In this document: one piece after another, positions 1-36,764 of the stretch
Position numbering within the stretch: the stretch's first letter is position 1
Layout of the letters: every line of letters starts with the position of its first letter
NCBI GenBank assembly: GCA_037142675.1
Contig: JBAXAF010000002.1
Coordinates: 13,300 to 77,299 of the forward strand
Direction: 5' to 3'
Length of the DNA: 64,000 bases
Origin: Candidatus Berkelbacteria bacterium
Lineage (GTDB): Bacteria > Patescibacteriota > UBA1384 > XYA2-FULL-43-10 > CAINNR01
Notes under the pieces: generated by a model
What the model was told of the DNA's origin: nothing
Seen by the model: the letters and a program-made list of their open reading frames with translations, nothing else
Database searches by the model: none
Translations under genes and position numbers: made by a program

Positions 1-42
1 GAATGCTGCCCTGATTTTCACTGCATGGCCTCCAAAATAAAA

Positions 43-1557
43 TCAAGTTTGAGCTTCATTTTTTCTAACCTTGATTGTGACACGAAAGACAGTTGGTTTA
101 ATACCTAGCAGCAGCCTGGTTTGCGAGTCAAATGCTGGAATTGAAGAAAATGCGATATTAGTAATTGGCAGCATTATTGGGGTTAAAATCCAGTCAAAAA
201 CAATCCTCCAGCCAGTTTTTTTGTTCCTGCGACGGGGCCAAACTAGCAAAGTTGATATGGTGAGTGTTGTAATCATACCAATATAGGCAACCAAAATGAT
301 ATTGCTGTAAATATGACGAAAATTGTATGCCAGAACAGAGTTGCCAAATTGCGGATTAACAACAAGTGGAATCCAGGAAAAAAGTGCCAGTACCAAAGAC
401 CCAGTGGCCCAACTCCAATGAGACTCAAAAAGTATCAGGCAGTTTGCCAAACGATCAAACCAGAAGATCTTTTTATCTTTGATTGCATGATAAAAAACAA
501 AAGGTATATCAGAGACTCCCCATGACCAACGCTTTTTCTGCAAATATTGTTCCTTAACGGTCAAAAACATCGTCGATCCCAAAATCGCGTCTTGGTAAAT
601 TGGAACAAAAACTGGCACCACCTGGTGATTACCAGCGAAGGCAAAATATGAGCGCCAGAATTGATGGCCATCTTCAACTATTGTATCCTTGGCCCAAAAA
701 TCAGTCAGGATAAGAGCCGCCAGACTTTGAGCATGCGAAGAAAAGTTACGCAGCCTGGAAACTCTGGAAGAAACTATCATTTGCCAAAAAGACGAACTCA
801 TACCAATCAAACGCATTGGCATTGGTACATCCCAGAGATTATTAAAGAACATCGGCAAAGGCTGAAAAGTTTTGTGGATTGGATCCGGAGTGGTTAAATA
901 TTTATATGTTAGGCAGGACAAGTATTTTTTATCCAAAATGTGGTCCGCATCCATATTAGTAACAATGATATTTTCGTACGGCACTTTTAGCTTGTCAATA
1001 ATTGGTAGCGCTGACTTCATGGAATAAGTGATATTTGGCCCTTTGCCCTTAATTTCATTAGGCAGATTGTCGGGATGCTCAGTGACAATAAAATCCAAAA
1101 ACTTCCCAGCATTTTCTTTCTTCAGAATTTCTGCGTATCCACGAACATTATCTTTGTCTCGTTCCTCTGTGGCCAAAATAAAGATAATCCGATTGTTTGG
1201 ATAGTCAGTCTTTTCAACTGATTTAACTGTAGTCCGAAGAATATCTAGCCCCTCTTTGTAAGTCGGGACCAAGACTATATGATAAATTTTTCTCCAGCTA
1301 TCCTTTGGGGCCAATTTTGTCAGTGCTGTCGCCCAATCGATAGCCATTTCTCTAGAGTGGTAAACATAACCCAAAACCAGCCGCCAAGACATAAACAAGA
1401 CTCGTATAAACCAAAAAATAATATAAAAAATCATGAATACAGCTAGAACTTTAGGCAAAAAGATTGCGAATAAAAATAAAACGACCAGGGTCCCCCAAGA
1501 AAAAGCCCCGGGCAGTATTTCAAATAGTCTAATTAGTTTTTTATCTCGTTTATCCAT
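43..1557 (-). CDS. Family 2 glycosyltransferase, processive (cellulose/chitin-synthase-like), multi-pass membrane protein
   Basis: 504-aa ORF; DAD motif (TNMDADH) and QxxRW motif (QKKRWSWG); multiple hydrophobic helices. Confidence 0.6.
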   Translation of the reverse strand: MDKRDKKLIRLFEILPGAFSWGTLVVLFLFAIFLPKVLAVFMIFYIIFWFIRVLFMSWRLVLGYVYHSREMAIDWATALTKLAPKDSWRKIYHIVLVPTYKEGLDILRTTVKSVEKTDYPNNRIIFILATEERDKDNVRGYAEILKKENAGKFLDFIVTEHPDNLPNEIKGKGPNITYSMKSALPIIDKLKVPYENIIVTNMDADHILDKKYLSCLTYKYLTTPDPIHKTFQPLPMFFNNLWDVPMPMRLIGMSSSFWQMIVSSRVSRLRNFSSHAQSLAALILTDFWAKDTIVEDGHQFWRSYFAFAGNHQVVPVFVPIYQDAILGSTMFLTVKEQYLQKKRWSWGVSDIPFVFYHAIKDKKIFWFDRLANCLILFESHWSWATGSLVLALFSWIPLVVNPQFGNSVLAYNFRHIYSNIILVAYIGMITTLTISTLLVWPRRRNKKTGWRIVFDWILTPIMLPITNIAFSSIPAFDSQTRLLLGIKPTVFRVTIKVRKNEAQT

Positions 1558-9894: not shown

Positions 9895-9961
9895 TGTCAT
9901 TCCCGCGAAGGCGGGAATCTACTAAACTATTTTTGGATCCCCGACTAGATCGGGGATGACA
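9895..9961. repeat. double-hairpin palindromic element with TGTCAT/ATGACA termini (copy 1; second copy at 36703-36764 in opposite orientation)
   Basis: TGTCATTCCCGCGAAGGCGGGAATCTAC...GGATCCCCGACTAGATCGGGGATGACA; near-identical to reverse complement of 36703-36764. Confidence 0.7.
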
Positions 9962-9968
9962 TTTCATG

Positions 9969-10721
9969 TCACTTTTCGCCGTCGACAAATTTTTTAATAC
10001 TTTCAATATTTGAAAAAAGATTTTGCGGGAAAACGATAGTAGAATTTTTTTCAACTGCAATCTCGGATAATACTTGCAGGTTACGCAACTGAAGTGCAAC
10101 AGGGTGCTTAGCAATGACATCTGCAGCTTTGCCTAGTTTATCAGCGGATAAATATTCACCTTCAGCAGCAATAATTTTTGCTCGTTTTTCTCGCTCGGCC
10201 TCGGCTTGTTTTGCCATTGCTCGTTGCATTGTGTCTGGAAGTTGAATATCTTTAATCTCAACTGTTCGAACAGCGACTCCCCAAGATTCAGTATGTGTGT
10301 CAATGATATCTTTAACTTTTTGATTAATTTTCACCGTTTCTGATAAAACTTCGTCGAGTGAGAATTGACCTACAATATTTCGAACGGTGGTTTGGGCAAT
10401 TTGGTTGACTGCCGAGTAAACGTTTTGAATTGCGACTAATGATTTGGTTGCATCAACTACTTGAAAATAAGCAACAGCAGCAACATCAATAGAAACGTTA
10501 TCTTTGGTGATAATTTTTTGGCTTGGTACCGGCATTGTAACAATTTGCATTGAAACCTTAACTAATCGGTCGATGATTGGGATAATTATTCGCCAGCCAG
10601 GATTTCGCTCGCCAATAACACGGCCCAAGCGAAAAACCACACCTTTTTCAAACTGCTGGACAACCCGCAAACCCAAAATTAACAAAATAAGAACAATAAT
10701 CCCAATAGTTTCATACGGCAT
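9969..10721 (-). CDS. SPFH/band-7 (stomatin/prohibitin-like) membrane protein
   Basis: N-terminal TM helix, band-7 core, C-terminal [17 protein letters not shown] coiled-coil typical of stomatin/HflC-like proteins. Confidence 0.75.
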
Positions 10722-21549: not shown

Positions 21550-21570
21550 AACTGTAACCACTCACTGTGT

Positions 21571-21654
21571 CGTCATTGCGAGGAGGTACGACGAAGCAAT
21601 CTGATCAAAATAGATTGCCGCGCCTCTCGCTTCACTCGATGACTCGCAATGACA
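21571..21654. repeat. MITE-like palindromic element, TGTCATTGCGAG...CTCGCAATGACA family (copy 1)
   Basis: terminal inverted repeats GTCATTGCGAGG / CTCGCAATGAC with internal GAAGCAATC...GATTGCCGCGCCT core; extended inverted repeats GTAACCACTCACTG/CAGCGAGTGGTTAC. Confidence 0.7.
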
Positions 21655-21922
21655 GCGAGTGGTTACTTAAAACTCTTCTTCTTTCAACTTTTCAAATCGC
21701 ATTTTGGAAAAATATTTCTGGCAATCTTTGTTATTACACCTCGCGAAACAACTTTTTTTGTCAGAAATCAAAATCGACGAGATAACTCCCGTTCGTGCGA
21801 CTACTTCGCCACATTTATCACAAACCTTATATTTCATAGATACACCTAGATTATCACAAAAATCCGAGCATTGGATACTCGGATTTTCTGCAGAAAAACA
21901 GCAGTAATATTTTTTAAGAATA

Positions 21923-23122
21923 TTATTCGTACTTTAGTGCGTCAAGTGCATTGATCTTGACCGCTCGATAAGCAGGGTATAGTCCGGTAGCTAAACCGAC
22001 TAGAATTGAGAATAATCCGACAATCAATTCAAGAGTCCAAGGTGTGACAAAAAGATTGATAGTATCAGCGCCAGCCCTTGAAGCAAAGACTGACAGCAGA
22101 GCATTTATGCCGGTTGCCATTAACAGTCCAAGAATTATGCCGAAGAAACCGCCAAAAGCACCGATCAAGAATGATTCAGTCACAAAGAGTTTGTAGATAT
22201 CAGCGTTTTGCATTCCAAGAGCTTTAAATAGACCGATCTCTCTAATTCTTTCAAGAAGATTAATTGTCAAAGTGTTGAATGTTCCAAGGGCAGCGACCAA
22301 AAGCGCTATCATGCCAAAAATCGCTAAGACTATCCTGAACAGAACGAATACTTGGCTAATCTGATCAACCGTATCTCCGACATATTCAGTCGATAATCCT
22401 AAATTTTCTAGTTGCTTGCGAAGTTCCGGAATGCTCTCTTTGGTGTCAGCTTTTAGTTTTAGGGAGATAAATTTATCGGCCCCATTTTTGGCAAGTAGCG
22501 AAATCGGCACATAAATGATTGGGCTTTGTTCATCTTTTTCGACTCCAACAATTTTCAGCGGAACTTTTTCGACAGTTTTAACCGAATCAGCATTGTCTGT
22601 GCGAATCTCTGCCGGAATAAGTAAATCTAAATCCATCGTTTGACCAATAACTTGATCCTCGTTCTCGCCTAGCAATTTCAAGGCAGCTCGGTTAATCATC
22701 GCTTGTCCATCTGCAAGTGGCAGAGAGCCTTTATCAGCACTAATGCTCGCCATTGGCCAGTAATCCTTACCTGCAGCGACAACGACGGTCTCAGCCGAGG
22801 TTCCGGTGCCATCACGACCAAGCCTACCGGCAATACTGTCAACTGGAACGACAGTTTGGACATGAGGAAGTGCTTCTGTCTTGTCAATCACGCTCTGATC
22901 AATTTTCAAAGTTTTTAAATTTGCCGATGGGATATCTAGAATAGTAAAAGCCTCAAAATTAGTCACCTGGCTTGTCACCAAACGCTCCAAGCCGTATCCC
23001 AGCGATACCAAGAAGATAATCGATCCAATACCAATCACAATTCCCAAAGTGGTAATTATTGTTCTGGATTTCTTTACCCATAGATTTTTTAGAGATAGCC
23101 GAACAATTACTTTTAATTTCAT
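21923..23122 (-). CDS. ABC transporter permease, FtsX/MacB/LolCE family
   Basis: 399 aa; N-terminal TM, large periplasmic domain, C-terminal 3 TM FtsX-like domain; ATGA-coupled to upstream ATPase. Confidence 0.75.
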   Translation of the reverse strand: MKLKVIVRLSLKNLWVKKSRTIITTLGIVIGIGSIIFLVSLGYGLERLVTSQVTNFEAFTILDIPSANLKTLKIDQSVIDKTEALPHVQTVVPVDSIAGRLGRDGTGTSAETVVVAAGKDYWPMASISADKGSLPLADGQAMINRAALKLLGENEDQVIGQTMDLDLLIPAEIRTDNADSVKTVEKVPLKIVGVEKDEQSPIIYVPISLLAKNGADKFISLKLKADTKESIPELRKQLENLGLSTEYVGDTVDQISQVFVLFRIVLAIFGMIALLVAALGTFNTLTINLLERIREIGLFKALGMQNADIYKLFVTESFLIGAFGGFFGIILGLLMATGINALLSVFASRAGADTINLFVTPWTLELIVGLFSILVGLATGLYPAYRAVKINALDALKYE

Positions 23123-23874
23123 ATCATTTTCTCCAAGTTCTTAAGCTCGCCCTCGAGCTGCGCTCGGAGTTCTCCCTTTTTCTCGGAGACGATTTTACCG
23201 TCTATCATGGCGATTGTTTTGCTCGCCAGAGGAAGATAAGCTAGGTTATGGGTAACCATTATCACGGTTCGTTTATAGATTTTATTGAGTTTTTGTAGCA
23301 GATCCATGACATAATCAGCGGAGTGCGTATCAAGATTGCCGGTCGGCTCATCGGCGACAATAATTGATGGATTATTAACCAGCGCTCGCGCCAAACCGAC
23401 CCTCTGTTGTTCACCACCGGAGAGCTGCATCGGCCATTTTTTGGCATACTGGCCCATTTCAACCTCGCCCAGTATTGCTTGTGCCTTAAACACCGAGTCA
23501 TGGTATCCTGATCCGGTTATCATTAGCGGAACCGCGACATTTTCAACTACATTGAGAGCTTTTGCCCAATACGATTGCTGGTAGACGATACCGAATTTGC
23601 TGGAGCGAACCTTGGCGCGTTGAGCCTGATTCAAAGAGCCCATATTCTTTTCATAGAGATAAACATTGCCCTTAGTTGGTGTTTCCAAGCCGACAATGTG
23701 ATTCAGAAGAGTTGATTTTCCACAACCTGATGGGCCATAAATAACAACAAAATCGCCTTCATTAATACTAACAGTAATGCCTTTTAAGACTTCTGTTTTT
23801 GTTGACTTGTCTGCCGAGACAAACTCTTTGAACAAACCATCAATTTTAATAATTTCTTTTTCCATTATTTCCAA
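23119..23874 (-). CDS. ABC transporter ATP-binding protein (MacB/LolD-like)
   Basis: Walker A GPSGCGKST, signature LSGGEQQRVGLARAL, Walker B IIVADEPTGNLD. Confidence 0.9.
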   Translation of the reverse strand: MEIMEKEIIKIDGLFKEFVSADKSTKTEVLKGITVSINEGDFVVIYGPSGCGKSTLLNHIVGLETPTKGNVYLYEKNMGSLNQAQRAKVRSSKFGIVYQQSYWAKALNVVENVAVPLMITGSGYHDSVFKAQAILGEVEMGQYAKKWPMQLSGGEQQRVGLARALVNNPSIIVADEPTGNLDTHSADYVMDLLQKLNKIYKRTVIMVTHNLAYLPLASKTIAMIDGKIVSEKKGELRAQLEGELKNLEKMI

Positions 23875-23878
23875 TTAT

Positions 23879-26800
23879 TCAATTATTTGGGTAAAACATC
23901 TTGCTTAAAAAGCCGAGTGATTTTTGCAGTGAATTAACAATAATGTCGACGACTGATTGTTGGATTTTACCGGTAATGGTTGTGGTGTCGTTCGAAGTTC
24001 CCATGTTCCCAGCGTTATCATGCGACACGGCCCGAAGGTGATAAATCTTTGATGGCTCAAGTCCGGAAGCAATGACTACATGGCTGGTCGAAAGCGCCAT
24101 ATCCTCTTTGGTTTTGAAATCATAATCAGATCCGCTGATTCCGGTTGAATATTCAATCTGACTTGTTGATGGTTCATCTGTTTGCCACGAAACAACTAAT
24201 TGCGCTTGTTGAGTTTGACCGAAGCCATTTGATTTTATTTCGACTGCAAGTGATGACAATTTTGGTGGTCGGGTGTCAAGCGGTGTTGTATAGGTGTTGG
24301 CATCTGACTCAACTTGATTTCCAAAGTTATCGACGCCTTTTGCTTTTAGAACATAAACCGATTTGTCCTGAAGGTCGGAAACCGTAATTTCGTGCGCTGT
24401 CTTATAATCAGCTTGCGAAGCGGTTTGTGCAGATGAGCCGATTGTATAAGAGACTATAGAAGTTGTCGCCACATTGGTATCCCAATTAAATTTCAGTGTC
24501 GTTGTCGGAGCGTCTTTAACTGTCTCAAAGCGGAAATTTGAGATCTTCGGCATGGTCAAAGTATTAAATGTATAATCATCCGAAATAAGCTGATTATTAT
24601 CCGTATCAGTCCCGATTATTTGAAAATGATATGTGGCCGAGTCGTCGAGGCTAGTCAAATTGATTGAGTGGCTAGTAGTTTGCGAACCGGATTTGTCGGA
24701 AATATTTCCACCATAGTTTGGAGTTTTTCCATAATTGATTGTCGAGGTGGCAATGGTTGTGGATGTCCAAGAAATTGTTGCGGCGTTCAAAGTGATATTT
24801 GAAACTTTTACATCGGAAATTTTCGGTCTTAGTCCGGTCTTAAACGAGTAGACATCGCTTCGTCCCTGGTTACCGTCTGAATCCTCCCACATTGCTTGGT
24901 AATAGTAGATCGTCTCAGGGTCAAGGCCAATGACTTCAACTGAGTGCTTTTTGCTCTTCTCCGGTTGACCAAATCCTTTGGCATTTTTCAAATCGTCTTT
25001 GCTTTTAGCAAAATAGCCGAAACTTGAACCTTCGCGGTCGGTTTCCCAAGAGATAGTAGCTGAAAATGCCTTTGGCGAAGCAGTTGGGGCCTCTGTTATG
25101 GCCGGTGGGTTAGTATAACGACCGGTCGGTGTCAAATTAACTATCGACGAGGCAACTGAATGTTGACCGGCATTGTCTTTCGATTTGACATAGTAATAGT
25201 ATTTTTGGCTTGTCAGGTCGGTGTCGGCATAAGTACTACCAGCGGTTGTGCCGACCGAGGAATAATTTGAGCCGTCAGTCGAACGATAAATTTCATAGCC
25301 GTTAAATCCGGTGCCGGTGTTTGCTGGCGCAATCCACTTTAGAGTTGCAGCAAACAGCGAAGCATCTCGGTTTGAAATATCAAAGATTTGCAAACTCGCC
25401 GGTGCGCCTGGCGCGGTGGTATTGGCAGTGAAGGTTGTTTTGGCGCAACCATCGGTGTCGGAGTTACCGGAGATTGCATTACAGGAATCAAATGAATAAT
25501 TTCCCGCTTCATCTTTGGCAACGATATAGAAGGTATTTTCTCCTTGTTGGGTGGCATATGGTCCGGCTGGAAGTATTCGGTCGGTCACAAACGAAGTATT
25601 CGACGGTGTCGGTAGCGCATTTATTGAGTAATAGTAACCCGATATTGTTCCGCTTCCGGTTGACGGCTCATCCCAGGAAAAAGCGAAACTGTTTGAATCA
25701 GACGATGACGGTGTGACAGTCAAATTCTTCGGTGCAGTCGGCGCGGTGTTATTGTAATAAAAGTTTGTCTGAACCGGAGTCGGATCGACATTGCCGGCGT
25801 TGTCAACGGCACGAAGATAAAAGATATTTGTGCCGGTTCGGTAAGCGACATCACCAAGTTCCAGTGATCCGCCGGTCATTGTTGCCGACCAATCGGAATA
25901 AATGCCGTCAGTTGCGCCTGTTTTGTATTGATAACCATAAATGCCACTTCCACCGGTGTCGCTCGCCATATCGGCACCCGAAGTCGGCCAGATGAAAGTA
26001 AAGGAATTGGTGCGCGTAAAGCCCGATGGTGAAACCGAAACATATTTTGGTGAATCCGGAGTTGCCGTTTCATATTTATAGGTGAAGATGGTTGAGCCGC
26101 TCCCGATATTACCGGCATTGTCTTTTGAGCTAATGCGTAAATAGTAAGTTGAGCCGGAAGCCAAAGAACCGGCGGTATAATTCAATCCTGTTTGGTAACT
26201 GCCGGCCGTATGCGGATCAGCAGAATTCGAAGTTCCGAAATAAACATAGTAACCGGCTGTGCCGGAAACCGTATTGGCGTGGCTGCCATCGGTGGCATCC
26301 GTGGAGGCGTTAAAAGTAAAATACGGAGCCGCGTAGTTGTGCCAATCGCCGGAGACAATATCGCTTCCACTAGAAGATTGACTTTTGGCAGTTGCCAAAG
26401 TCGGATCCGGTGGCGCCATATTATCCTGATCGTATTTGTAAGTGTATACGGTTGCAGCCGTAGAAATATTACCAGCGACATCTTGGGTTTTTATTCGCAA
26501 ATAATAGCTTTGATTATAGTTAGTCGATAAATCGCTTGCCGTGTAGTTTGTGGTAGTTTGCCAGACACTCGGATCGGCTGAAGCATTTGTACCGAAATAA
26601 ACATAATAACCGGCAACTCCCGACGGAGTTATCCCGTTTGCATTGTCACTTGGCGCAGTCCACGAAAAGTAAGGTGTTGGATAGTTATACCAAGTCGCCC
26701 CGTCAAGTGTCACGCCACTCGAAGTGCTTTTAGCGGTAATTGAGCTTGGATTATTTGGTGGTAAAAGATCTGGATTGTAATCAGGTGATGTAATGCCGGA

Positions 26801-27447
26801 AAAGTTAATCCAACCCCAGTCTTCGCTCCAGGCATAACCGGAGAAATTTCCTCCTGTAGCTATCACCACATTGGCGCCGGTCGGACTTGCATTAAAATCA
26901 ATATAGCCGCCGTTTAGCATTTTCGCCTTTCCTGATAAATGTCCGGAAGTGTCAGCGACTACCGGTCCCGAAGGATTGCTATCTGAGCCAAAGCTAATCC
27001 AGCCGAGATCGCCACCCCAGGCATAACCGCCCATCTGGCGAGAATAATTATCTATCGTCACATTGCTATGGTAAGTTCCTGCGTCAAAGTAAATTTTTTC
27101 GCCAGTGTTAACAATAGTTCCGGTAGTTCCCACAACCGCTACCGCACTGCCGGTAGCCTCAGAGTGCTTACTCGAGAGAAACATACCGCCAGCTACGATA
27201 ATAAAGCCGCAAAATATTGTGAATGCCGTCCAGCCGATTTGTTTGCGGTAAGGTTTTGCTTTTTTGGTAATCTTTGCGAGCCAACTATTAAATTCTGCCG
27301 GACTGGTAGAATCTTGATTTATACTTTGTCTTTTATGATTAACTTTTAGAGAAAATGACAAATGTTTTTTAAAATTACTAAAAACTTCACAAATCTTTTT
27401 TGTGATCTGTCGATAATTTCGATTAATTTTGGATATTAGCTTTTTCA

Positions 27448-27448
<1 letters not shown>
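23879..27448 (-). CDS. very large cell-surface protein with multiple FN3-like repeats (N-terminal membrane anchor)
   Basis: 1189 aa; repeated ~90-aa modules with YYxxxxxxDxAGNxS-type patterns; start codon overlaps RT stop (ATGA). Confidence 0.6.
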
Positions 27449-28642
<1,194 letters not shown>

Positions 28643-28666
28643 TTTTTTCTTGTCATTTGTTTTTCT

Positions 28667-28742
28667 TGTCATTGCGAGGCTTTGCGAAGCAATCTTTTTT
28701 GTGTTTTTTATGGGATTGCCACGCCTGCTGGCTCGCAATGAC
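28667..28742. repeat. MITE-like palindromic element, TGTCATTGCGAG family (copy 2), in the TR-RT spacer
   Basis: TGTCATTGCGAGGCTTTGCGAAGCAATC...GATTGCCACGCCTGCTGGCTCGCAATGACA. Confidence 0.7.
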
Positions 28743-28776
28743 ATACTCATTTTAGGTAGAAAAGGCATCCCCGTTG

Positions 28777-28906
28777 CCTGACACAGCGAACATTGTTGTT
28801 ATTGCCCTCTCCATTGTTGTTCGTGTTGCCATTATTCAACTGGACGTTCCACGCGTTAGATCCAACGCTGTTCTCCGTCGCCGACCAGTAGTTGTTGGAT
28901 GGCTGA
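28777..28906 (-). other. DGR template repeat (TR)
   Basis: 130 bp ~90% identical to VR (29499-29628); all 13 mismatches are at TR adenines on the coding (minus) strand; AAC/AAT codons in TR. Confidence 0.9.
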
Positions 28907-29083
28907 TGAAATGCTGCCGACTTTTGTTGCTCGGTTTTCTATCTCTGGCAAGCAGAGTAAGAAAACTTGTAATTATTCCTTTTGGAGCGGCAGCCGTAAC
29001 GGGGCGGTCGCACTCCCGATCATAACCCCGCACAGAGGCGAAGAATACGAGCGGCTCTTGCTATGCCTTTTCTACCTAAAATT

Positions 29084-29431
29084 TTAATGTGCTTTCGACC
29101 AATTCATCCATTTTTCGAACTGTTTCGATATTTCAATCAGTTGCTCAAAAAAGAATTTATAACTTTGTATTTTCATTGTCTTAAGCTCGTGCAGCATTCT
29201 GGCTTTAAACTTAATTCTCTCAATGATTACCAACCCCTCCTTTAATTTGTTTGTTTTGTCTTCAAGGTTATTGGCTTCAACAATTATGTCCATCAACTTT
29301 GTCAGCAATCCCTCTATTTCCTCGGCTAAGCCGTATTTGTAATCTTTCGGGAATCCTCGTGCCAACCGGAAGAAGTATAAATTTATGTCGTAAACGCTTT
29401 TGTAAATTGGAAGGTGGTCATATCTTGCCAT
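29084..29431 (-). CDS. avd: DGR accessory variability determinant (Avd)
   Basis: 115-aa helical protein starting MARYDHLPIYKSVYDINLYFFRLARGFPKDYKYGLAEEIE, positioned between target gene and TR as in canonical DGRs. Confidence 0.75.
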   Translation of the reverse strand: MARYDHLPIYKSVYDINLYFFRLARGFPKDYKYGLAEEIEGLLTKLMDIIVEANNLEDKTNKLKEGLVIIERIKFKARMLHELKTMKIQSYKFFFEQLIEISKQFEKWMNWSKAH

Positions 29432-29495
29432 AAAAATTTTCGCTCGACCGCCTTCGGCGGAAACAATAATAACTAAATAATCAAATTACCCTGCG

Positions 29496-30536
29496 TTACC
29501 TGACACAGCGAACATTGTAGTTACCGCCCTCTCCAAAGTTGCTCGTGTAGCCATTATTCAACTGGACGCCCCACGCGTAAGATCCAACGCTGCTCTCCGT
29601 CGCCGACCAGTAGTTGTAGGATGGCTGAGTCAGATTCCAGTAAGCACCATCAATGAAAGCCTGCATCAGCTCGTTTTGGGTTGGTAAACGCCAGACACCG
29701 GCACCGGCAGGGTTGGCACTGCTGTTGCAAAGCTGTGCAGCGGTTTTATTACCGACAGCCACATTGGCTGCGCCGGTAGCGTTCCATGTCCAAGAAGATC
29801 CGCCGGAAGCGACAAATTGAATTACTCCGGCATTATTCTTAAGGCATTGGCTCCAAGTTAAACCGGTTAGCGGGTCTTTATTGGTATTTCCGGCCCGATT
29901 ATCGTCACCGGTTACCGGAGACGAGTTGGTTGTAAAAGTTAAAGAACAGTTGTTGCCGGTCGTGCCACCGTCCGCCGGATCAAGCACATCGGTAGAGCAA
30001 GGGCCACCGGAAACTGGCGCATAATTACCGGAAATTTGCGTGCCATCATTTGACCAAGCGACTTTACCACTTTTAACATCGCCGGCTCCGGCAACCGTGC
30101 CGGCACCAGTCAAGGGATATGTTGCCGAAGGATATTGACCGGTTAAGCCAACGCCAAAGAGGGTTCCACTTTTGACTGTTCCAACTGAAAGATTCCCTAA
30201 ATTATATGTGCCGCTGGTTGCGCTGCGCGAACCGTTTGCGGTGAATGTTTTTGTAGATGAAACATCACCAGCCCCAGCCGTCGTGCTCGGTGTCCACTTG
30301 GCAGCAGTTTTGATACGGTTCCAATAAGTTCCCCAGTCTGGTGTGTCCGAGTCGGAACCGAAGGTTAAACCCGTAAGATCTGTATAAAGCGTTTTCATGC
30401 GTGAAGTTACTCCGGACTCCGGTGTGCTACCGGATTGTTCGGCAAAAACTTTGTAAGTTCCAAAAACTCCGGCGCAAAGTAGCACTGCCACAGCCGCGAT
30501 GATGAACTTATTCCTTTTTTTCATATTTGCCTCCAA
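29496..30536 (-). CDS. DGR target protein: secreted/surface protein with C-terminal DUF1566/C-type-lectin-fold variable region
   Basis: N-terminal signal/anchor; C-terminus GLTWSQC...WRLPTQNELMQAF...YWSATESSVGSYAWGVQLNNGYTSNFGEGGNYNVRCVR; VR at 29499-29628 matches TR. Confidence 0.85.
   Translation of the reverse strand: MEANMKKRNKFIIAAVAVLLCAGVFGTYKVFAEQSGSTPESGVTSRMKTLYTDLTGLTFGSDSDTPDWGTYWNRIKTAAKWTPSTTAGAGDVSSTKTFTANGSRSATSGTYNLGNLSVGTVKSGTLFGVGLTGQYPSATYPLTGAGTVAGAGDVKSGKVAWSNDGTQISGNYAPVSGGPCSTDVLDPADGGTTGNNCSLTFTTNSSPVTGDDNRAGNTNKDPLTGLTWSQCLKNNAGVIQFVASGGSSWTWNATGAANVAVGNKTAAQLCNSSANPAGAGVWRLPTQNELMQAFIDGAYWNLTQPSYNYWSATESSVGSYAWGVQLNNGYTSNFGEGGNYNVRCVR
29499..29628 (-). other. DGR variable repeat (VR) at the 3' end of the target gene
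   Basis: aligned to TR; VR has T,G,G,T,T,G,T... where TR has A on the coding strand (Y/S/G/F codons versus AAC/AAT). Confidence 0.9.
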
Positions 30537-30550
30537 TTATAAATTCTTTT

Positions 30551-30616
30551 TGTCATTGCGAAGTACGAAGCAATCTCATTCCACACAGATTGCCGCGCCT
30601 GCTGGCCCGCAATGAC
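30551..30616. repeat. MITE-like palindromic element, TGTCATTGCGAG family (copy 3), immediately upstream of target gene start
   Basis: TGTCATTGCGAAGTACGAAGCAATC...GATTGCCGCGCCTGCTGGCCCGCAATGACA. Confidence 0.7.
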
Positions 30617-30714
30617 AAACCCTAATCCTCGCAATGTAAAACTATAAATATTAAAAAAGACACTCAAAAGAGTGCTTGAATTACCAGTTCTAAATGCAAA
30701 AACGGAGAGCTCCT

Positions 30715-30745
<31 letters not shown>

Positions 30746-30990
30746 GAGTTCGGAACTTCGAACTCGAGCTAAAGCGCGCTCGTTACAGTTACGTTTAATG
30801 TTCCCTCCTCTATATAAAACACAGTCTTTGAAATGATTACTTATAATTATACATCAACTAAACCAATAATACATCATTTATTATTTTGTTGTAAATGCCT
30901 AGAAATCAAATTAATAGCAACTGGGATTTTCTTAGGAATTATCGTATCAATTTGGCACTTTAATCGTATCATTTTGATACGAGAAAGAGA

Positions 30991-31866
30991 TTAATTGCTT
31001 TGCCCGATTTTCCAGACTCCCTTTTCTCGAAATGCCGCCAGAGTTTGACGTTTTGCCATATTTAGAAGGACATTCAGGGGCTGTTTTGTATTTTTTGCGT
31101 ACTCAGAAAGTGAAATAATTTTGAGACCTTCTAAATAAGCAATTCTTTTATGTAAAGATTCCAATAGTGCAAGATAGAGAACTTTTTCCATGTCTGCAGT
31201 TTTTTTGTTTTCTTTATATTCCTGAAAGGTTTTGTAATATAGATGTTTCTCTTTATCACGAATAATCACAGGTGGAAAGCCAATCTGTAGCAGGAGATAA
31301 TTAATTAAAACCCTGCCAATTCGGCCATTACCATCGCAAAATGGATGAATATGCTCGAATTCCAAATGAAATTTAGCAATCTTTTCTAGAAAATAAGACA
31401 TGTGATCGCCGGAATAATCAAGAAGTGCTGATTCAACCATAGTTGCCACATGTTCCGGTGCTGGCGCAATGTGCGTTCCAACTCGGACATATTCTCCGGC
31501 AGATCTAAATATACCGGCAATTTTATCATCAATTCCAGCAATCAACATCTTGTGTAAAAACAAGATTAATTCTTCATCCAAATCACGGCTAAGAGTTTTG
31601 TCCTTGATATATTCAAAAACTCTAGCTAAATTTTTAGCTTCATAAACTTCTCGAACAGATACTTTGCGCGCAACTTCAAGTTCTAATAAAATCTTTTCAG
31701 TTTCCTCAATGGTGAGGGTTGAATTTTCGATAGCATTTGAGTTGTAGACTGATTCCGGAATCTCGGCTTCAGCTAGCATATCCAAAAGAGATCCTTTGCC
31801 GATTTTCAAAGTATCATACTGCTTTTTTAAGTCATTAATTTTTTGTTTGATATCTTTATTGATCAT
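30991..31866 (-). CDS. Fic/DOC family protein (AMPylase-type)
   Basis: Fic motif HPFCDGNGRIGR; 291 aa. Confidence 0.8.
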   Translation of the reverse strand: MINKDIKQKINDLKKQYDTLKIGKGSLLDMLAEAEIPESVYNSNAIENSTLTIEETEKILLELEVARKVSVREVYEAKNLARVFEYIKDKTLSRDLDEELILFLHKMLIAGIDDKIAGIFRSAGEYVRVGTHIAPAPEHVATMVESALLDYSGDHMSYFLEKIAKFHLEFEHIHPFCDGNGRIGRVLINYLLLQIGFPPVIIRDKEKHLYYKTFQEYKENKKTADMEKVLYLALLESLHKRIAYLEGLKIISLSEYAKNTKQPLNVLLNMAKRQTLAAFREKGVWKIGQSN

Positions 31867-31899
31867 GGTTAAATCTTATCATATTAACGATATATTGTC

Positions 31900-31950
31900 A
31901 ATACACCGTGAATATAGTCTACTTTGAGTATATATTCACGGTGTTTCTGA
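31900..31950. promoter_or_regulatory. 14-bp-arm inverted repeat between the NTase gene end and fic start (operator or terminator)
   Basis: ACACCGTGAATATA-gtctactttgag-TATATTCACGGTGT. Confidence 0.4.
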
Positions 31951-32003
31951 TTATTCAATGACATTTAGACTAGCTATAGAGGGCTTATTTTCGTTATATG
32001 GTG

Positions 32004-32648
32004 CTATTTATTAACTTTTGCCAAATAATTTGTCACGGTTTCTGAGAGATACTTTTTAACTAATTCGAAACTAATATCATCATCGTGCTTAAAGAGAATT
32101 GGTTCTTCCAGAATATCATCAAAATACACTAGGCTTTTAAGGATTAGGTTAACGTCAATTGTAGGAAACTTTTCTTTTGTTAATTTGAAAAGCTCTTCAA
32201 GGCTTATTTTGTGAAGAATAAAATACAAATCAACATAATCTTTAAGAACAGATCGGCTTGTAATTGCTGAGAGCTTCATAGCACCAATGTCTTCGAGGGA
32301 GGCCATTTTAAAATTATCTTCATCCAACAGTGGATTAATCGGTTTGTATGGAAAAGCAAAGAAGCTAATTTTAATTGTGTCGTCAATGATAAATGTTAGA
32401 GTATCTTTTTCTTCCTGAATTTTTGCAATTTGATGATTCTGAAAAATTTGCTCGACTTTTTTGGTCAAGTCTTCAGTAGAAAAAGATTGTTCAGAAAAGA
32501 AATCAAAATCAATACTATCTCGATGCCCCAGTTGCAATGCTAGAGCGGTGCCACCGGCAAGATAAAAATCATCTTTGAAAACTTTAAAAAGAGGTAGAAT
32601 ATTTATACGCTTTTGGTCTAGAATATCCCAATAAAATTGTTTATCCAT
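32004..32648 (-). CDS. nucleotidyltransferase of the AbiEii/DUF1814-like family (putative toxin/defence component)
   Basis: N-terminal LAGGTALALQLGHRDSIDFDFF resembles the GGTAL...RxSxDxD NTase motif of AbiEii-type proteins. Confidence 0.5.
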   Translation of the reverse strand: MDKQFYWDILDQKRINILPLFKVFKDDFYLAGGTALALQLGHRDSIDFDFFSEQSFSTEDLTKKVEQIFQNHQIAKIQEEKDTLTFIIDDTIKISFFAFPYKPINPLLDEDNFKMASLEDIGAMKLSAITSRSVLKDYVDLYFILHKISLEELFKLTKEKFPTIDVNLILKSLVYFDDILEEPILFKHDDDISFELVKKYLSETVTNYLAKVNK

Positions 32649-32928
32649 GAAGTACTCTTTCCAGCTTAGAAATGGGTTTGATATTTAAATAAAGCGACCA
32701 AAGAGCTAGAGACTTTTTGTTCCATTGACCAGTTGGAATCTGCTCGGCTATTTTTTGTATCTCATCCAAACTATATGTTTCGAACAACCAATCTGTAGCA
32801 TCTTCGGTGCCGTAATTTAAAACCTGGGCAATAATTAATTTTTTGTGTAATTCTAAATCGATCTTATTGATGTCATAAGACCAGAGAACATTTGCAACAG
32901 ATTTTGGAATTTTTTCGTTGGTTGTCAT
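32641..32928 (-). CDS. small partner protein of the nucleotidyltransferase (putative antitoxin/regulator)
   Basis: 95-aa ORF overlapping the NTase start by 8 nt. Confidence 0.35.
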   Translation of the reverse strand: MTTNEKIPKSVANVLWSYDINKIDLELHKKLIIAQVLNYGTEDATDWLFETYSLDEIQKIAEQIPTGQWNKKSLALWSLYLNIKPISKLERVLHG

Positions 32929-33004
32929 ACCTAAAAATTACTTGTCTAACAGATATATTATAGCATATTTGGGGCTATTTATATAGGGGAAAATGATATT
33001 AATC

Positions 33005-33817
33005 CTATTCCCAAATCTCTCCGGTAATACCATTTACTTTGATCTTGTCGATAGTCGTAAATTGTATACGAAGATCGCTCGGGTTGTCCTCGTCTTCTAA
33101 AAGTCCTTTGGTCATTCGTTTGGCATAGATCATGGTGGCTAGAGTCGGGCAAACAATCATGATAATCGGGAAGGTCTTGGAAATTTCATCCCATTCGTAG
33201 CCATTGTAAAGCTCTATAAAATTTTTGACTTGGCGCCTGATCGAATAACGAGGCAGAGTCGGCGCAATTATCGCAAAAAGAAAATATTCCGATATTGTCC
33301 GTTTGCTGGCTTTCTTTTTCTTGAGTCTTTTAACCACCGGATCCACTTTATATTCAGTCAAAAAGTTAAAACGATACTCGGAATTAGCCAGGTCCGTTGC
33401 GGTAGCAATCAAATAGGAGAGTTCATTTTCTTCACTAGACTCTCGGCTTCTGTTTGCCGCAATTTTCAAACCCAAAGCAATCTCCCCGACGAGCTGGCAT
33501 TTTTCGATAAAATCGGTTGAGCGGTCTTTAAGCCTATAAAACTTTCTTAGAACCTCGATCGAGCAATCATCTTGAGTTTTTAAGAATCTGATTCCATTTA
33601 ATCCCAGGTAATAGATCGCCGGTTTGGTATTTTCTCCAAACTTATTTGAATAGATTCGATTAAGGTATTCTTTTTGTGTTAGGTCTTTTAACCAGTCGTT
33701 GATTCTTTTGTGATATTTATGATTGAGGAATGCTTGAATTTGTTTTCGATCTAAGAATTTGTATTTGTATAGTAGTTTGAGTATTTCTTGTTGTTTTGTA
33801 GTTATTTTGTTGGTCAT
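33005..33817 (-). CDS. putative replication-relaxation / wHTH mobile-element protein
   Basis: N-terminal QQEILKLLYKYKFLDRKQIQAFL wHTH-like segment; mobile-element context. Confidence 0.3.
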   Translation of the reverse strand: MTNKITTKQQEILKLLYKYKFLDRKQIQAFLNHKYHKRINDWLKDLTQKEYLNRIYSNKFGENTKPAIYYLGLNGIRFLKTQDDCSIEVLRKFYRLKDRSTDFIEKCQLVGEIALGLKIAANRSRESSEENELSYLIATATDLANSEYRFNFLTEYKVDPVVKRLKKKKASKRTISEYFLFAIIAPTLPRYSIRRQVKNFIELYNGYEWDEISKTFPIIMIVCPTLATMIYAKRMTKGLLEDEDNPSDLRIQFTTIDKIKVNGITGEIWE

Positions 33818-34094
33818 TGTTTTGAATTAGTTGTTTATTTAATTTGCAATTTACCATTACTACCTACACCGACCAAACCTATATTTGTAAAGGTAAGTGA
33901 TACAAGTCGCATATCTTTTAAGGCTAAATTAAACATATTTCAGTATCAGTTCACTGATACAATTAAATACCTGATTATTCGGCTTGTCAACAGTCTTATT
34001 TAAACTTTTACCCTCTTGACATTGTGAATATAACAATAGTATACTATGAATATAATCACAATAAGGAGGGTATACGGGGACTTCTCATCTTCAA

Positions 34095-34415
34095 TTGATA
34101 GGCCAGAAAAACACCTTGTTTTCTACGGTGGAAATCAATCCCTCTGCCCATATTAAAGCTGAGAGGCCAAGGCCAGAAGCCTTAATTGCTACACATAGCA
34201 AAACCTTTGAGAGTGCCTTGAGCAGGATCTTCCCTGGCAAACAAGAGGAAACCAGGATCCAAAAGGCGCGCCTAATTATGGGAGATGATGTCAAAGATTT
34301 ATCGGATGAAGATTTAGAGGTTTTCCTTACCGAGTTTCAATATCTGATCGACTGCTGGTTAGACGAATACGAAAAACAAGTTTTCAATAACAAAACATTA
34401 AGAGAATTAATTTAA
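34095..34415 (+). CDS. hypothetical protein upstream of recombinase
   Basis: 106-aa ORF, 15-nt gap to recombinase start. Confidence 0.3.
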   Translation: MIGQKNTLFSTVEINPSAHIKAERPRPEALIATHSKTFESALSRIFPGKQEETRIQKARLIMGDDVKDLSDEDLEVFLTEFQYLIDCWLDEYEKQVFNNKTLRELI

Positions 34416-34429
34416 TAAAGGAGGGATGA

Positions 34430-36145
34430 ATGGACTTTCCATCACCAATCAAAGGGGAGCAATCAGAAAAAGCGGTCGTTTATATTCGAGTATCGACCGA
34501 AGAGCAAGTCGAAAACTATTCGCTAGGCACTCAAGAAGAGATTTGCAGAAAAGAAGCCGATAAACGAAAGCTCGAGGTTGTGAAGGTTTTTCGCGAAGAG
34601 GGACGTTCCGCAAAGACGATTACCGGACGACCTACACTAATTGAAATGCTCGAGTATTGCCGAAAACACAAAAGAGAAATCAGTTCGGTTATTGTTTACC
34701 GACTGGATCGAGTTTCCCGTCAAACATCTGATTATTTGGTGATTAGAAGAAAACTGGTGGAATGCGAAATAGAACTAATTTCAGCCACAGAGCCAACCGG
34801 CAACAGCCCGACAGAAAAGTTTGTTGAAACTATGTTGGCCGGCTTTGCCCAGATGGATAACGATATTCGAAGCGAACGAGCCAAAAATGGGCTTAGAGCC
34901 AGATTCCAGGCTGGCTTAACCAGTTATGTAACGATGGGCTATGATAATAAAAGTGGCTATACAACAAAAAATCCCGAAACATTTGATAAGCTTCAAGCTT
35001 CTTGGCATTTATTTTCCACAGGCACGAAAACACTGCGAAATATTGCCAATATTCTAACTGAACAAGGAATTGCCCAAAGACATAAAGGCGGGCGTATGCT
35101 CCCACAGCAGGTTAACAGAATGTTTCGCAATAAATTCTATGCCGGTTATGTCATCTCTAAAAAATATGGGCAAGAAGTCCAAGGCCAGCATCCACCAATG
35201 GTTACCGAGGAATTATTCTACAAAGTCCAAGCGATTCTAGATGGTAGAAACCACAACATCTCAAGGCCGCTAGCAAAGCGCCATCGAGACAACCCGAATT
35301 TTCCCCTGCGCCGTATCGTCAAATGCGAAATTTGCGGTACTTCTTTTACTGGAGGGAAAAGCAAAGGCAAGCGCGAATACTATGGCTATTACTTTTGCCG
35401 AAACAGATGCAAAGAATCGAATGTCGCTTCGGAAAAGATAACCCATGATACCACCGACTATTTGGGTAAAATATCCCTAACAGAAAAAACCGCCAAATTG
35501 TTTAACGCTTTTCTGCGAAGAACTTATTTTAGCAGGGCTAAAACCCTACAAAAAAGACGAGAGCAGGCCGATGACGAGCTAAAAAAGTCATATGAAACAC
35601 GCCAGGCATTAATCGATAAGAATCTGACCGGCATATACTCCGACGAGATCTTTAAGGAACAAAACAATATGTTAGAGGCAAAAATAAAGAGTATTCAATT
35701 CACTAAAAACGATGAATTACTTGATAAATATGCTCTTGGGCCGATTACTCAATTTGTTGAAACCAAGCTAACCGATCTGCCGAAAACCTTTGAGACATCT
35801 ATAAAAAAAGATCCTGAACCGGATCTCGGACAGATCAGAATGCTCCTGTGTTCGATATTCCCCTCTGGAATGCCATATGGCCGAAATGGCTATTCGAACA
35901 CAGAAATCAGCCCATTTTTCAGAGCGATTTTGGACTTGCAGCCCAAGAATTCTAATCTTGTCTCGTTTGGCGGAGAGAGTGTGATTCGAACACACGAGGA
36001 TAGGTATCCATGGGTTTACCACCCATTCCCTTTGACCACTCGGGCATCTCTCCGCTTAAGACTTACAGCGAGCCGTGCCGGAGCCCAACCCGACAATCAT
36101 CTCCCCGTGACGTCGTGTCACAGCCTTGATGACATCAAACATTGA
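34430..36145 (+). CDS. large serine recombinase (integrase); 3' end of ORF runs antisense through tRNA-Tyr (C-terminal ~60 aa probably spurious extension)
   Basis: resolvase catalytic domain AVVYIRVSTEEQ, recombinase domain, zinc ribbon CEICG...CRNRC, coiled-coil; no stop codon until 36145. Confidence 0.8.
   Translation: MDFPSPIKGEQSEKAVVYIRVSTEEQVENYSLGTQEEICRKEADKRKLEVVKVFREEGRSAKTITGRPTLIEMLEYCRKHKREISSVIVYRLDRVSRQTSDYLVIRRKLVECEIELISATEPTGNSPTEKFVETMLAGFAQMDNDIRSERAKNGLRARFQAGLTSYVTMGYDNKSGYTTKNPETFDKLQASWHLFSTGTKTLRNIANILTEQGIAQRHKGGRMLPQQVNRMFRNKFYAGYVISKKYGQEVQGQHPPMVTEELFYKVQAILDGRNHNISRPLAKRHRDNPNFPLRRIVKCEICGTSFTGGKSKGKREYYGYYFCRNRCKESNVASEKITHDTTDYLGKISLTEKTAKLFNAFLRRTYFSRAKTLQKRREQADDELKKSYETRQALIDKNLTGIYSDEIFKEQNNMLEAKIKSIQFTKNDELLDKYALGPITQFVETKLTDLPKTFETSIKKDPEPDLGQIRMLLCSIFPSGMPYGRNGYSNTEISPFFRAILDLQPKNSNLVSFGGESVIRTHEDRYPWVYHPFPLTTRASLRLRLTASRAGAQPDNHLPVTSCHSLDDIKH
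35968..36053 (-). tRNA. tRNA-Tyr (anticodon GTA), type II with long variable arm
   Basis: reverse complement GGAGAGATGCCCGAGTGGTCAAAGGGA ATGGG TGGTAAA CCCAT GGATACCTATCC TCGTGTGTTCGAATCACAC TCTCTCCGCCA; D-arm pattern as in bacterial tRNA-Tyr; position 33 is G (atypical). Confidence 0.7.
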
Positions 36146-36348
36146 TCAGCTCGCAAACATCTGGAGCGGGCGACCGGATTAGTACCGGCAACCAAATGCA
36201 ACCCTGTCCTTACTGCTTTGTTGTTGCTAGCAGCAGTCGACTCAGCGGCATCCGCTCGACGCCCGCTCTCCGAAAAATGTGCGGCGCCGGTTCCCAGACC
36301 GAGCCTGGGTTTCCGATCCGGGTCGGCGCCGCGAAACTTGTCAAGATT

Positions 36349-36473
36349 TGGTCGGGGCGACCAGATTTGAACTGGTGACCTTACGGGCTGCCAGGAATGA
36401 GTTTTAGCTCCTTTGCCAAGGGAAACTCAAACCGGCAGTGGACCGCACGAGCTACCAACTGCTCCACGCCCCG
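36349..36473 (-). ncRNA. tRNA-like gene with ~50-nt hairpin insertion in the anticodon loop (intron-containing tRNA or tRNA pseudogene)
   Basis: reverse complement has canonical acceptor (CGGGGCG/CGCCCCG), D arm GAGC-AGTTGGTA-GCTC, anticodon stem TGCGG/CCGTA, variable loop AGGTC, T arm ACCAG-TTCAAAT-CTGGT, discriminator A + CCA; 56 nt between anticodon-stem strands containing CTGCCGG...TGAGTTT...AAACTCA...CCTGGCAG helix. Confidence 0.5.
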
Positions 36474-36537
36474 ACCGCGAAATGCGACAAAGAATAATAT
36501 AGCAGATACAGTTTTTTCTGTCAATAGTTTTGTGTTT

Positions 36538-36626
36538 CGTCATTGCGAGGAGCGATTAAGCAACGTGGCAATCTTTTAAATAGAGCTTGCCACGCCTCAG
36601 CCGATGGCTGATGGCTCGCAATGACA
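36538..36626. repeat. MITE-like palindromic element, TGTCATTGCGAG family (copy 4)
   Basis: TCGTCATTGCGAGGAGCGATTAAGCAACGTGGCAATC...GCTTGCCACGCCTCAGCCGATGGCTGATGGCTCGCAATGACA. Confidence 0.7.
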
Positions 36627-36702
36627 ATCTTAAAGCGATTTGATTTCTGCGACATTTTTTGCTAAGTTAGGTATAGAAATTTGGGGTTTCTTTTTTTATT
36701 AC

Positions 36703-36764
36703 TGTCATCCCCGACCTGATCGGGGATCCACTAATAGTAGATTCCCGCCTGCGCGGGAATGACA
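36703..36764. repeat. double-hairpin palindromic element (copy 2 of the 9895-9961 element, inverted)
   Basis: TGTCATCCCCGACCTGATCGGGGATCCACTAATAGTAGATTCCCGCCTGCGCGGGAATGACA. Confidence 0.7.

Follow-up and report, generated by a model that had tools for sequence, protein, structure and literature searches.

The Neisseria repeat dRS3 (ATTCCC-N8-GGGAAT) is part of a 28-nt oriented hairpin, NTS (CGTCATTCCCGCGMAVGCGGGAATCYRG), on which the nuclease SsnA acts (Chenal et al. 2025, PMC11893778). SsnA is a 94-aa GIY-YIG nuclease that binds its motif as single-stranded DNA (ssDNA) and cuts a few nucleotides upstream, and it does not bind double-stranded DNA, RNA, or the reverse strand (PMC11893778). 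The critical positions of NTS are the three bases that lie upstream of its palindrome and the C directly after it (PMC11893778). NTS generalizes to "Ssn-related motifs" (SRM), both NTS-ssnA-NTS units and single repeats have been described, cross-specificity among Ssn homologs is only partial, and Rickettsia is listed among the SRM-rich genomes (PMC11893778). Ssn-driven mobility was raised merely as a hypothesis (PMC11893778). The Ssn/NTS system was not described until 2025. Here, we analyze a 64-kb stretch of contig JBAXAF010000002.1 of a Candidatus Berkelbacteria bacterium (the window), which carries eight short palindromic elements. We read these elements as head-to-head pairs of Ssn-related hairpin motifs and as gene-less, nonautonomous derivatives of a module-ssn-module unit, a reading to which we assign a probability of roughly 80%.

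Inverted pairs of oriented hairpin modules

The window (40.6% G+C, about 12% noncoding) contains eight doublets and no more, each 62 to 89 bp long (Table 1). Every doublet is an inverted pair of modules in which the GTC ends face outward, the ATC(T/C) ends face inward, and a spacer of 11 to 35 nt separates the two. A module reads (T/C)GTC, then a palindrome bounded by AT at both ends and enclosing a variable inner stem-loop, and then C(T/C). All 16 modules of the window have an AT-closed stem of 5 to 8 bp, and 15 have both (T/C)GTC and ATC(T/C), the exception being the right module of doublet A4 (GCAAGC). A generic rule (GTC, an AT-closed stem of at least 5 bp, and C) found 16 modules in the window, against 1.14 ± 1.18 in 200 dinucleotide shuffles; 15 rule-found modules and one degenerate module compose the eight doublets, and the window has no singletons. 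The termini also exceed chance: TGTCATTGCGAG is matched nine times with at most one mismatch, against 0.34 expected, a count reached by 0 of 100 shuffles, and TGTCAT-N40-70-ATGACA is matched five times, against 0.19 expected. Thus, the repeat family and the shared termini proposed in the initial annotation of this DNA are real. Its coordinates were right to within 1 nt, with two ends now moved from 28742 to 28743 and from 30616 to 30617.

The modules belong to several hairpin classes. A hidden Markov model (HMM) of the ATTGCGAG class, built from 299 distinct modules, returned exactly the eight expected A-class modules and one 11-nt fragment when the window was scanned, and the window therefore has four A-type elements (A1 to A4). 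The model's weak match at 30626-30636 overlaps the partial terminus next to A3. The internal core GAAGCAATC...GATTGCC(G/A)CGCC, at first ascribed to the whole element, is shared by A1, A2, and A3 but is degenerate in A4. The two B doublets are a second element present in opposite orientations, as had been proposed, and their arms are 86 to 97% complementary. Doublet C, first listed as a further relative, is a real element of the same architecture but a separate hairpin class, and an identical copy of its 25-nt GTCATGCTGAATTTATTTCAGCATC module occurs in an unrelated locus, L228. Finally, doublet V, which lies in the reverse transcriptase (RT) gene of a diversity-generating retroelement (DGR), is another hairpin class and not the ATTGCGAG variant for which it had been taken; it shares with the A type only TGTCAT/ATGACA and the overall architecture, and its hairpins are ATCCTGAGG and ATTCCGAGC.

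Modules appear to be hairpins in their own right. The outer part of a ATTGCGAG-class module reads ATTGC-GA...G(A/T/C)(A/G)-GCAAT, and GCGAAGC mini-hairpins and C-GA-G tandem G.A steps are stable in, and typical of, DNA hairpins. Among the 299 distinct modules, the inner segments form a mean of 2.33 Watson-Crick pairs, against 0.38 when shuffled, with 49 different inner arms of at least 3 nt. This covariation of the inner stem supports a hairpin within each module. When folded as ssDNA, all eight elements beat their own shuffles, with z scores from -3.4 to -6.2 (A1, -5.2; A2, -6.2; A4, -5.4; B1, -5.5; B2, -5.3), and the B and C types are predicted to form two separate hairpins. Moreover, modules assort freely, as alpha-alpha, alpha-beta, and beta-beta doublets all occur. 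The unit of the family is a pair of independent oriented hairpin modules and not one element with terminal inverted repeats.

What the modules resemble is the Neisseria NTS. The bases found to be critical in NTS (GTC on the 5' side, C on the 3' side; PMC11893778) are the bases common to the window modules, and the modules at 9895-9922 and 36737-36764 (the ATTCCCGC hairpin) agree with NTS save for 2 mismatches in 28. Three window modules, against 0.07 expected, fit the degenerate SRM pattern as published, HGTCWYN(0-2)YYVSBRHN(0-5)WNVSBRGN(0-2)RNCYNB, and all three are among the four B-type modules (B1 left and both of B2). Indeed, it was with B-class sequence strings that a literature search led to the Ssn paper; the same kind of search with ATTGCGAG-class sequence or peptide strings returned nothing relevant, the supplement of the Ssn paper lying outside its reach. 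On sequence, we take the modules to be NTS/SRM repeats and thus putative recognition sites of an Ssn GIY-YIG nuclease.

Ssn-like genes and filled or empty sites

Copies of the family extend far beyond the window. With an interior of 30 to 60 nt between them, the exact 12-nt termini were found in 17 IMG/VR viral contigs and also in at least 120 stretches from GTDB species genomes, which span more than ten phyla. An absence of further copies and of termini conserved beyond chance would have refuted the initial annotation, and these counts decisively show the opposite. Among the matches listed are Cyanobacteria, Bacteroidota, Chloroflexota, Nitrospirae, Planctomycetes, alpha-, gamma-, and deltaproteobacteria, lineages of the candidate phyla radiation (CPR), Omnitrophota, KSB1, and Clostridia. 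Four of the loci fetched by the exact termini encode 92-aa GIY-YIG proteins, and in three loci, L033 (Woesebacteria), L065, and L100, ATTGCGAG modules bracket the GIY-YIG gene on both sides. The 92-aa proteins have a single domain (Pfam PF01541, E values of 1e-15 to 1e-18), and their invariant Y5, Y16, and E63 have the spacing (Y-11-Y-47-E) of the SsnA catalytic residues Y6, Y17, and E64. An NCBIfam search of these Ssn-like proteins returned no named family.

Association of the modules with Ssn-like genes is frequent and oriented. An alignment of the 92-aa proteins was used as the query to fetch 84 further metagenomic loci, and a module lies within 300 bp of the Ssn-like gene in 70 of them, on both sides in 48, and of the ATTGC class in 55. 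Up to 150 bp from the gene, there are 6.8 modules per kb; more than 600 bp away, there are 0.22, a 30-fold difference. Upstream of the gene, the nearest module is on the plus strand in 41 of 54 loci; downstream, the nearest one is on the minus strand in 43 of 58. This outward orientation is the geometry of the window doublets with the gene in place of the spacer, and the window doublets may therefore be regarded as gene-less versions of the module-ssn-module unit. When 1,374 open reading frames (ORFs) around 146 elements in 137 loci were clustered, no conserved neighbor gene family emerged, and the only nuclease found adjoining these elements was GIY-YIG.

Elements also come and go between related loci. 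We compared the window with L141, which is syntenic with it at about 84% DNA identity, and with L142, a second related locus found via RT homologs. V is absent from the homologous RT genes of both, where the empty site reads AAACTCGAGAGAG. Read by eye against these empty sites, the inserted block is flanked by a 7-nt direct repeat, AACTCGA (TCGAGTT), with 4 and 7 filler nt, in the order first copy (28173-28179), filler CAGC, doublet V, filler AGAACGG, and second TCGAGTT copy. A3 is absent from the syntenic site in L141. The spacer between the template repeat (TR) and the RT gene holds a doublet in the window, a single module in L141, and three modules in L142. Directly after the stop codon of Avd, L141 and L142 carry an element flanked by AGCACATTA, and the window has the empty site. 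The two insertions verified by an empty site, in the RT gene and next to Avd, thus have flanking duplications of 7 nt and 9 nt. In L142, a doublet at 2515-2700 (hairpins ATTCCGAC and ATCTCGAGC) lies within the called N terminus of the large fn3-like protein encoded downstream of the RT, where it is read in frame (..LLSFRLQWRNLKTIGEISRQARDDNS..); neither the window nor L141 has it. Longer flanking direct repeats were seen in a few cases (17 nt in L114 and 21 nt in L015). When presence/absence polymorphism was sought around B1 and C by exact-protein look-up, all that came back was identical sequence. The initial annotation had suggested an active or recently active nonautonomous family resembling MITEs (miniature inverted-repeat transposable elements) or repetitive extragenic palindromes (REPs), and recent gain and loss, read from filled and empty sites in related loci, supports this.

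We note that short partial copies of the outer arm, here called stutters, lie 3 to 12 nt outside full modules and adjoin many of them, including those of A2 and A3 (Table 1). Further stutters occur in L033 (1634-1645), L100 (25-68 and 153-197), and L142 (749-770, 885-902, and 2656-2676), and similar partial termini are found in L065. A simple cut-and-paste model does not explain them.

How the doublets are maintained may be pictured from the Neisseria system. Each module would fold into a hairpin in ssDNA and would be bound by a small (about 92 to 94 aa), single-domain GIY-YIG nuclease of the Ssn family, which would nick a few nucleotides 5' of GTC. Hairpin binding and ssDNA nicking are properties described for Ssn in the literature, and by analogy, they may extend to the copies in the window. 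Because two modules with outward GTC are the arrangement that brackets ssn genes, the doublets would be MITE- or REPIN-like derivatives, spread or sustained in trans by an Ssn whose gene lies elsewhere in the genome. Doublets have repeatedly been inserted and lost in the Patescibacteria-like lineage of the host, mostly between genes and once in frame in a length-variable linker of the RT. That Ssn acts on these particular copies and drives their spread is what we infer.

A bolder proposal can be offered tentatively. Perhaps module-ssn-module units and gene-less doublets form a distinct class of mobile DNA whose sole enzyme is a nuclease of about 92 aa with a GIY-YIG domain and which spreads by ssDNA nicking and repair and not by a transposase. 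We regard this as a possibility that deserves attention, though we would not bet on it. Filled and empty sites, variable duplications of 7 to 21 nt with filler, stutters, in-frame insertions, and arrays all fit such mobility. If it is correct, the loci described here would be the first comparative-genomic evidence for the mobility hypothesized in the Ssn paper.

Several points weigh against reading the doublets as pairs of Ssn targets. A-class doublets are predicted to fold as a single long hairpin and not as two module hairpins, because both modules share the ATTGCGAG arm. The A-, V-, and C-type modules all miss the published SRM pattern, and the window has at least six hairpin classes, and Ssn homologs show only partial cross-specificity. 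The 64-kb window has no ssn gene, an HMM of 87 Ssn-like proteins giving a best E value of 0.2. [quoted passage not shown] To our knowledge, GIY-YIG enzymes hydrolyze DNA and have no known strand-transfer activity, and a transposition chemistry is not established. As Ssn cuts one orientation only, a doublet would by analogy receive one nick per strand. Finally, target-site duplication, a property expected of MITEs that we looked for around 144 doublets, is not general: flanking repeats of at least 6 nt occur at 29 of them, against 14.9 expected, and a duplication of fixed length is not a property of the family.

Setting of the doublets and the reading frame of the RT gene

Most doublets of the window are intergenic. 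B1 lies between convergent genes, immediately past a terminator-like hairpin. C ends 20 nt upstream of an SPFH gene at 10721, and B2 ends 21 nt upstream of the start of an 885-aa ORF (36785). The end of A3 is 15 nt upstream of the point where the ORF of the DGR target gene starts (TTG, 30536), and a ribosome-binding site (GGAGG) and probable ATG of that gene follow directly downstream of A3. We note that A1, with convergent genes on either side, occupies the loop of a 12-bp inverted repeat, GTAACCACTCAC / GCGAGTGGTTAC (21554-21671), which suggests insertion into a terminator-like hairpin.

Table 1. Doublets, inserted block, and partial termini of the window
Feature	Start	End	Strand	Description
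Doublet B1	9895	9961	none	Left module TGTCATTCCCGCGAAGGCGGGAATCT (+), right module TGTCATCCCCGATCTAGTCGGGGATCC (-)
Doublet C	10741	10809	none	Modules TGTCATCCCGGACTTGTTTCGGGATCT (+) and TGTCATGCTGAATTTATTTCAGCATCT (-)
Doublet A1	21571	21654	none	ATTGCGAG class; left module alpha, right module beta
Insertion block of V	28180	28284	minus	105 nt (35 codons), made up of filler CAGC, doublet V, filler AGAACGG, and second TCGAGTT copy; from alignment to empty sites in L141 and L142
Doublet V	28184	28270	none	Within the DGR RT gene; modules TGTCATCCTGAGGTTACAGCCGAAGGATCT (+) and TGTCATTCCGAGCTTGTCGAGGAATCT (-)
Stutter near A2	28651	28656	plus	Isolated extra TGTCAT terminus, 10 nt outside A2
Doublet A2	28667	28743	none	ATTGCGAG class; in the spacer between TR (28772-28906) and RT start (28642)
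Doublet A3	30551	30617	none	ATTGCGAG class; upstream of the DGR target gene
Stutter near A3	30627	30637	plus	Partial terminus CCTCGCAATGT, 9 nt outside A3
Doublet A4	36538	36626	none	ATTGCGAG class; degenerate right module (GCAAGC for GCAATC)
Doublet B2	36703	36764	none	The two hairpins of B1 in reversed order

The repeats also affect assembly. Short-read assemblies of the same strain, L139 and L140 (Logan) and L231 (ENA), end inside elements B1, C, and V, with L139 and L140 breaking within B1. Independent assemblies thus end inside the elements, and the repeats therefore break contigs. Elements of this kind are a frequent source of spurious peptides and of contig breaks in metagenomes, and in annotation, they are best masked and not called as ORFs.

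The DGR into which V was inserted is bona fide. It is encoded on the minus strand, with the target gene and its variable repeat (VR, 29494-29628) followed by Avd, the TR, and the RT, and 12 of the 13 differences between TR and VR fall at TR adenines. In a comparison with the Bordetella bRT (8ub7), additional residues of the window RT fall between positions 122 and 127. Close RT homologs have a native (ER)n linker at this place, the length of which varies from ERER up to (ER)5E. In a protein alignment to the homologs, the V block adds 35 residues between KL and (ER)n, in frame and free of stops. We observed a (GA)20 tract at 28134-28173 that encodes the (ER)n linker on the minus strand and is native to the RT clade.

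The RT gene is split into two ORFs (28642..28094 and 28131..27448). One element copy was at first thought to have disrupted the RT, and an element did insert there, within the variable linker, but its 105 nt keep the frame. It is the (GA)n tract that breaks it: n = 20 puts the C-terminal 227 aa out of frame, whereas n = 12, 15, 18, or 21 would give a full RT of 392 to 398 aa. In a second assembly of the same strain (L231), n is 11 and the C-terminal part is likewise out of frame. The split of the RT is thus due to how long the native (GA)n tract is, and element V is not its cause. The tract could be a slipped-strand ON/OFF switch of the DGR RT, a mark of a pseudogene, or an assembly collapse.

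Tracts of the same kind occur elsewhere around these retroelements. Upstream of the DGR target gene, at 30717-30771, the minus strand has a hairpin, CTCGAGTTCG-AAGTTC-CGAACTCGAG, with a second (GA)n tract immediately after it, and this site shares AACTCGAG(AG)n with the microsatellite site of the RT gene. Hairpin and (GA)n recur at 2861-2904 of L141, and L227 has (GA)n at the corresponding place (992-1025). We considered the CTCGAGTTC...GAACTCGAG hairpin with (CT)n as a second mobile element that carried V and dropped the idea, since (GA)n and CTCGAG are native to the RT gene; conservation of the intergenic hairpin and (GA)n in L141 and L227 also counts against it. Separately, L141 has a second Avd (a partial ORF at 1-153, minus strand) beside a 384-aa ORF (173-1327) with partial DNA similarity to the window RT and a long (GA)n/(CT)n tract of its own (768-823). 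Together, they may be a second DGR.

Other observations concern RNA genes and repeats of the window. The initial annotation placed copies beside tRNA genes, for which we found no support, the nearest tRNA genes being 0.5, 1.2, and 2.3 kb away. ARAGORN predicted a tRNA-Tyr at 35968-36053 and an unusually long, 94-nt tRNA-Gly(gcc) at 59500-59593, neither of which was reported by the Rfam tRNA model at its gathering score. The segment 44701-45635 contains direct repeats in two pairs (201 nt at 89% identity and 98 nt at 70%), spaced about 480 to 500 nt apart; they represent a tandem duplication of about 0.5 kb that is unrelated to the hairpin elements.

Alternative readings and known systems

Might the repeats be RNA genes? 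The doublets could encode small RNAs or could be hairpins in 5' or 3' untranslated regions that serve regulation, mRNA stabilization, or termination. At the gathering threshold, Rfam reported only tRNAs across the window; at the E-value threshold, it added a nonsignificant RT-17 match at 29176-29269 and weak matches to FtrB in B1 (32.3 bits) and B2 (25.8 bits), far under the gathering score of 66 bits. FtrB is a 115-nt Francisella transcript that was detected with a Northern probe covering GTCATTCCCGCGTAGGCGGGAATCTC (PMC3091763). Four doublets end 15 to 24 nt upstream of a start codon, which would be in keeping with such a role. Nevertheless, the elements are two-fold symmetric, occur in both orientations, and are also found between convergent genes and within coding sequence, and no T-run follows the hairpins. 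The GCGAAGC and C-GA-G motifs are those of stable DNA hairpins. Moreover, SsnA binds the hairpin as DNA but leaves RNA of identical sequence unbound (PMC11893778), and deletion of ftrB caused no defect in growth, stress response, macrophages, or mouse virulence under the conditions tested (PMC3091763). We consider RNA genes an improbable explanation, and the elements may nonetheless have side effects on the transcripts in which they lie.

A classical MITE would derive from an insertion sequence with a DDE transposase and would have 12-nt terminal inverted repeats and target-site duplications. The termini TGTCATTGCGAG and CTCGCAATGACA are indeed perfect inverted repeats, and both insertions verified by an empty site have direct repeats. 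The length of the duplication, however, varies (7, 9, 17, and 21 nt, and perhaps 4 nt), most elements have none, and 1 to 7 filler nt separate duplication and terminus. TGTCAT is all that the B, C, and V doublets share, their two hairpins being unrelated, and single modules exist in L141 and L228. Finally, among the neighbor genes of the 146 elements, no transposase was bracketed by the termini. Thus, descent from a DDE element is very unlikely.

REPs provide another precedent, as REP doublets forming hairpins (REPINs) and bacterial interspersed mosaic elements (BIMEs) are mobilized on ssDNA by RAYT, a Y1 transposase resembling that of IS200/IS605. All eight elements have the same gross anatomy of two inverted hairpins with a short spacer, they are mostly intergenic, and arrays are known, such as the 19 modules of L157 (compare PMC3116915 and PMC3337134). 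The oriented tag of our modules is GTC, however, and their sequence equals that of NTS/SRM. REPs carry a 5' GTAG tetranucleotide, which counts against this explanation. No recurrent neighbor family other than GIY-YIG was found beside the 146 elements in 137 loci, no bracketed RAYT among them, and it is the GIY-YIG gene that is flanked by the same termini in 70 of the 84 loci. Mobilization by a RAYT is therefore extremely unlikely.

Least credible of all is that the hairpins are a functional part of the DGR, serving in the TR-RT spacer and upstream of the target for cDNA priming, target recognition, or the folding of DGR RNA: the 3.3-kb cassette holds three of the eight elements, A2 takes up 77 nt of the 129-nt TR-RT spacer, and the spacers of L141 and L142 also contain modules, but three of six related DGR cassettes (L227, L229, and L230) have no module anywhere, so that the elements are not DGR components and the idea is largely refuted, the TR-RT spacer of L228 lacks one, the number, class, and orientation of spacer modules differ among the window, L141, and L142, the other five elements lie far from the DGR, and genomes and contexts that lack DGRs also have these elements. 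More generally, the number and orientation of modules vary among the cassettes of L141, L142, and L228. Nor is the clustering around the DGR that was seen at first significant when normalized to noncoding DNA, as two intergenic doublets fall in about 0.9 kb of noncoding cassette and seven in the 7.7 kb of noncoding DNA of the window.

The doublets can thus be compared with four known systems, of which two are remote. Rickettsia palindromic elements are palindromic, 100 to 150 bp long, and able to insert in frame in protein-coding genes and be translated. Doublet V, which adds 35 aa to the RT, and the doublet of L142 in the neighboring gene behave in this way, and the likeness noted is one of behavior, the window doublets being shorter, at 62 to 89 bp. 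These Rickettsia elements also figure in a review of MITEs (PMC10969869). In the FtrB consensus (Rfam RF02748), GTCATTCCCGCGTAGGCGGGAATCTC precedes another hairpin, which makes it a B-type doublet in transcript form, though the window copies reach only 32 and 26 of the 66 bits required. FtrB was described as a Francisella-specific trans-acting small RNA, and the connection to a repeat or a nuclease was not made (PMC3091763).

REPINs and BIMEs with their RAYTs are closer in organization (Bertels and Rainey 2011, PMC3116915). Both families consist of nonautonomous inverted-hairpin doublets, each is linked with one single-copy gene, for a nuclease or a transposase, which the repeats bracket, and for both, recognition of a hairpin in ssDNA has been proposed. 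They differ in enzyme, a GIY-YIG hydrolase here and an HUH/Y1 transposase there, and in sequence tag. Moreover, one doublet of the present family may combine hairpins of unrelated sequence classes.

The closest match is with NTS/SRM. Each consists of oriented hairpin repeats in which an AT-closed palindrome stands between a 5' GTC and a 3' C, both bracket small single-domain GIY-YIG genes, and both are spread widely over phyla; two of the B-type modules have 26 of 28 NTS positions, and three of the four fit the SRM pattern. Unlike the single repeats and NTS-ssnA-NTS units of Chenal et al., the modules of the window all lie in tight, gene-less inverted doublets, in a Patescibacteria-like host and in a window without an ssn gene. 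The dominant ATTGCGAG class differs further: its outer stem has 5 bp, its internal loop is GA/GAA (or GA/GYG), its inner hairpin varies, and the degenerate pattern of Chenal et al. does not capture it. The repeat is of a known kind, and the variant and its behavior are new. One sequence class, very widespread yet missed by the search pattern as published, goes together with a clade of Ssn-like genes; the elements are cleanly present in some related genomes and absent from others, at times in frame within genes; and the hairpins also exist as compact gene-less doublets that share the geometry of the pair that brackets ssn.

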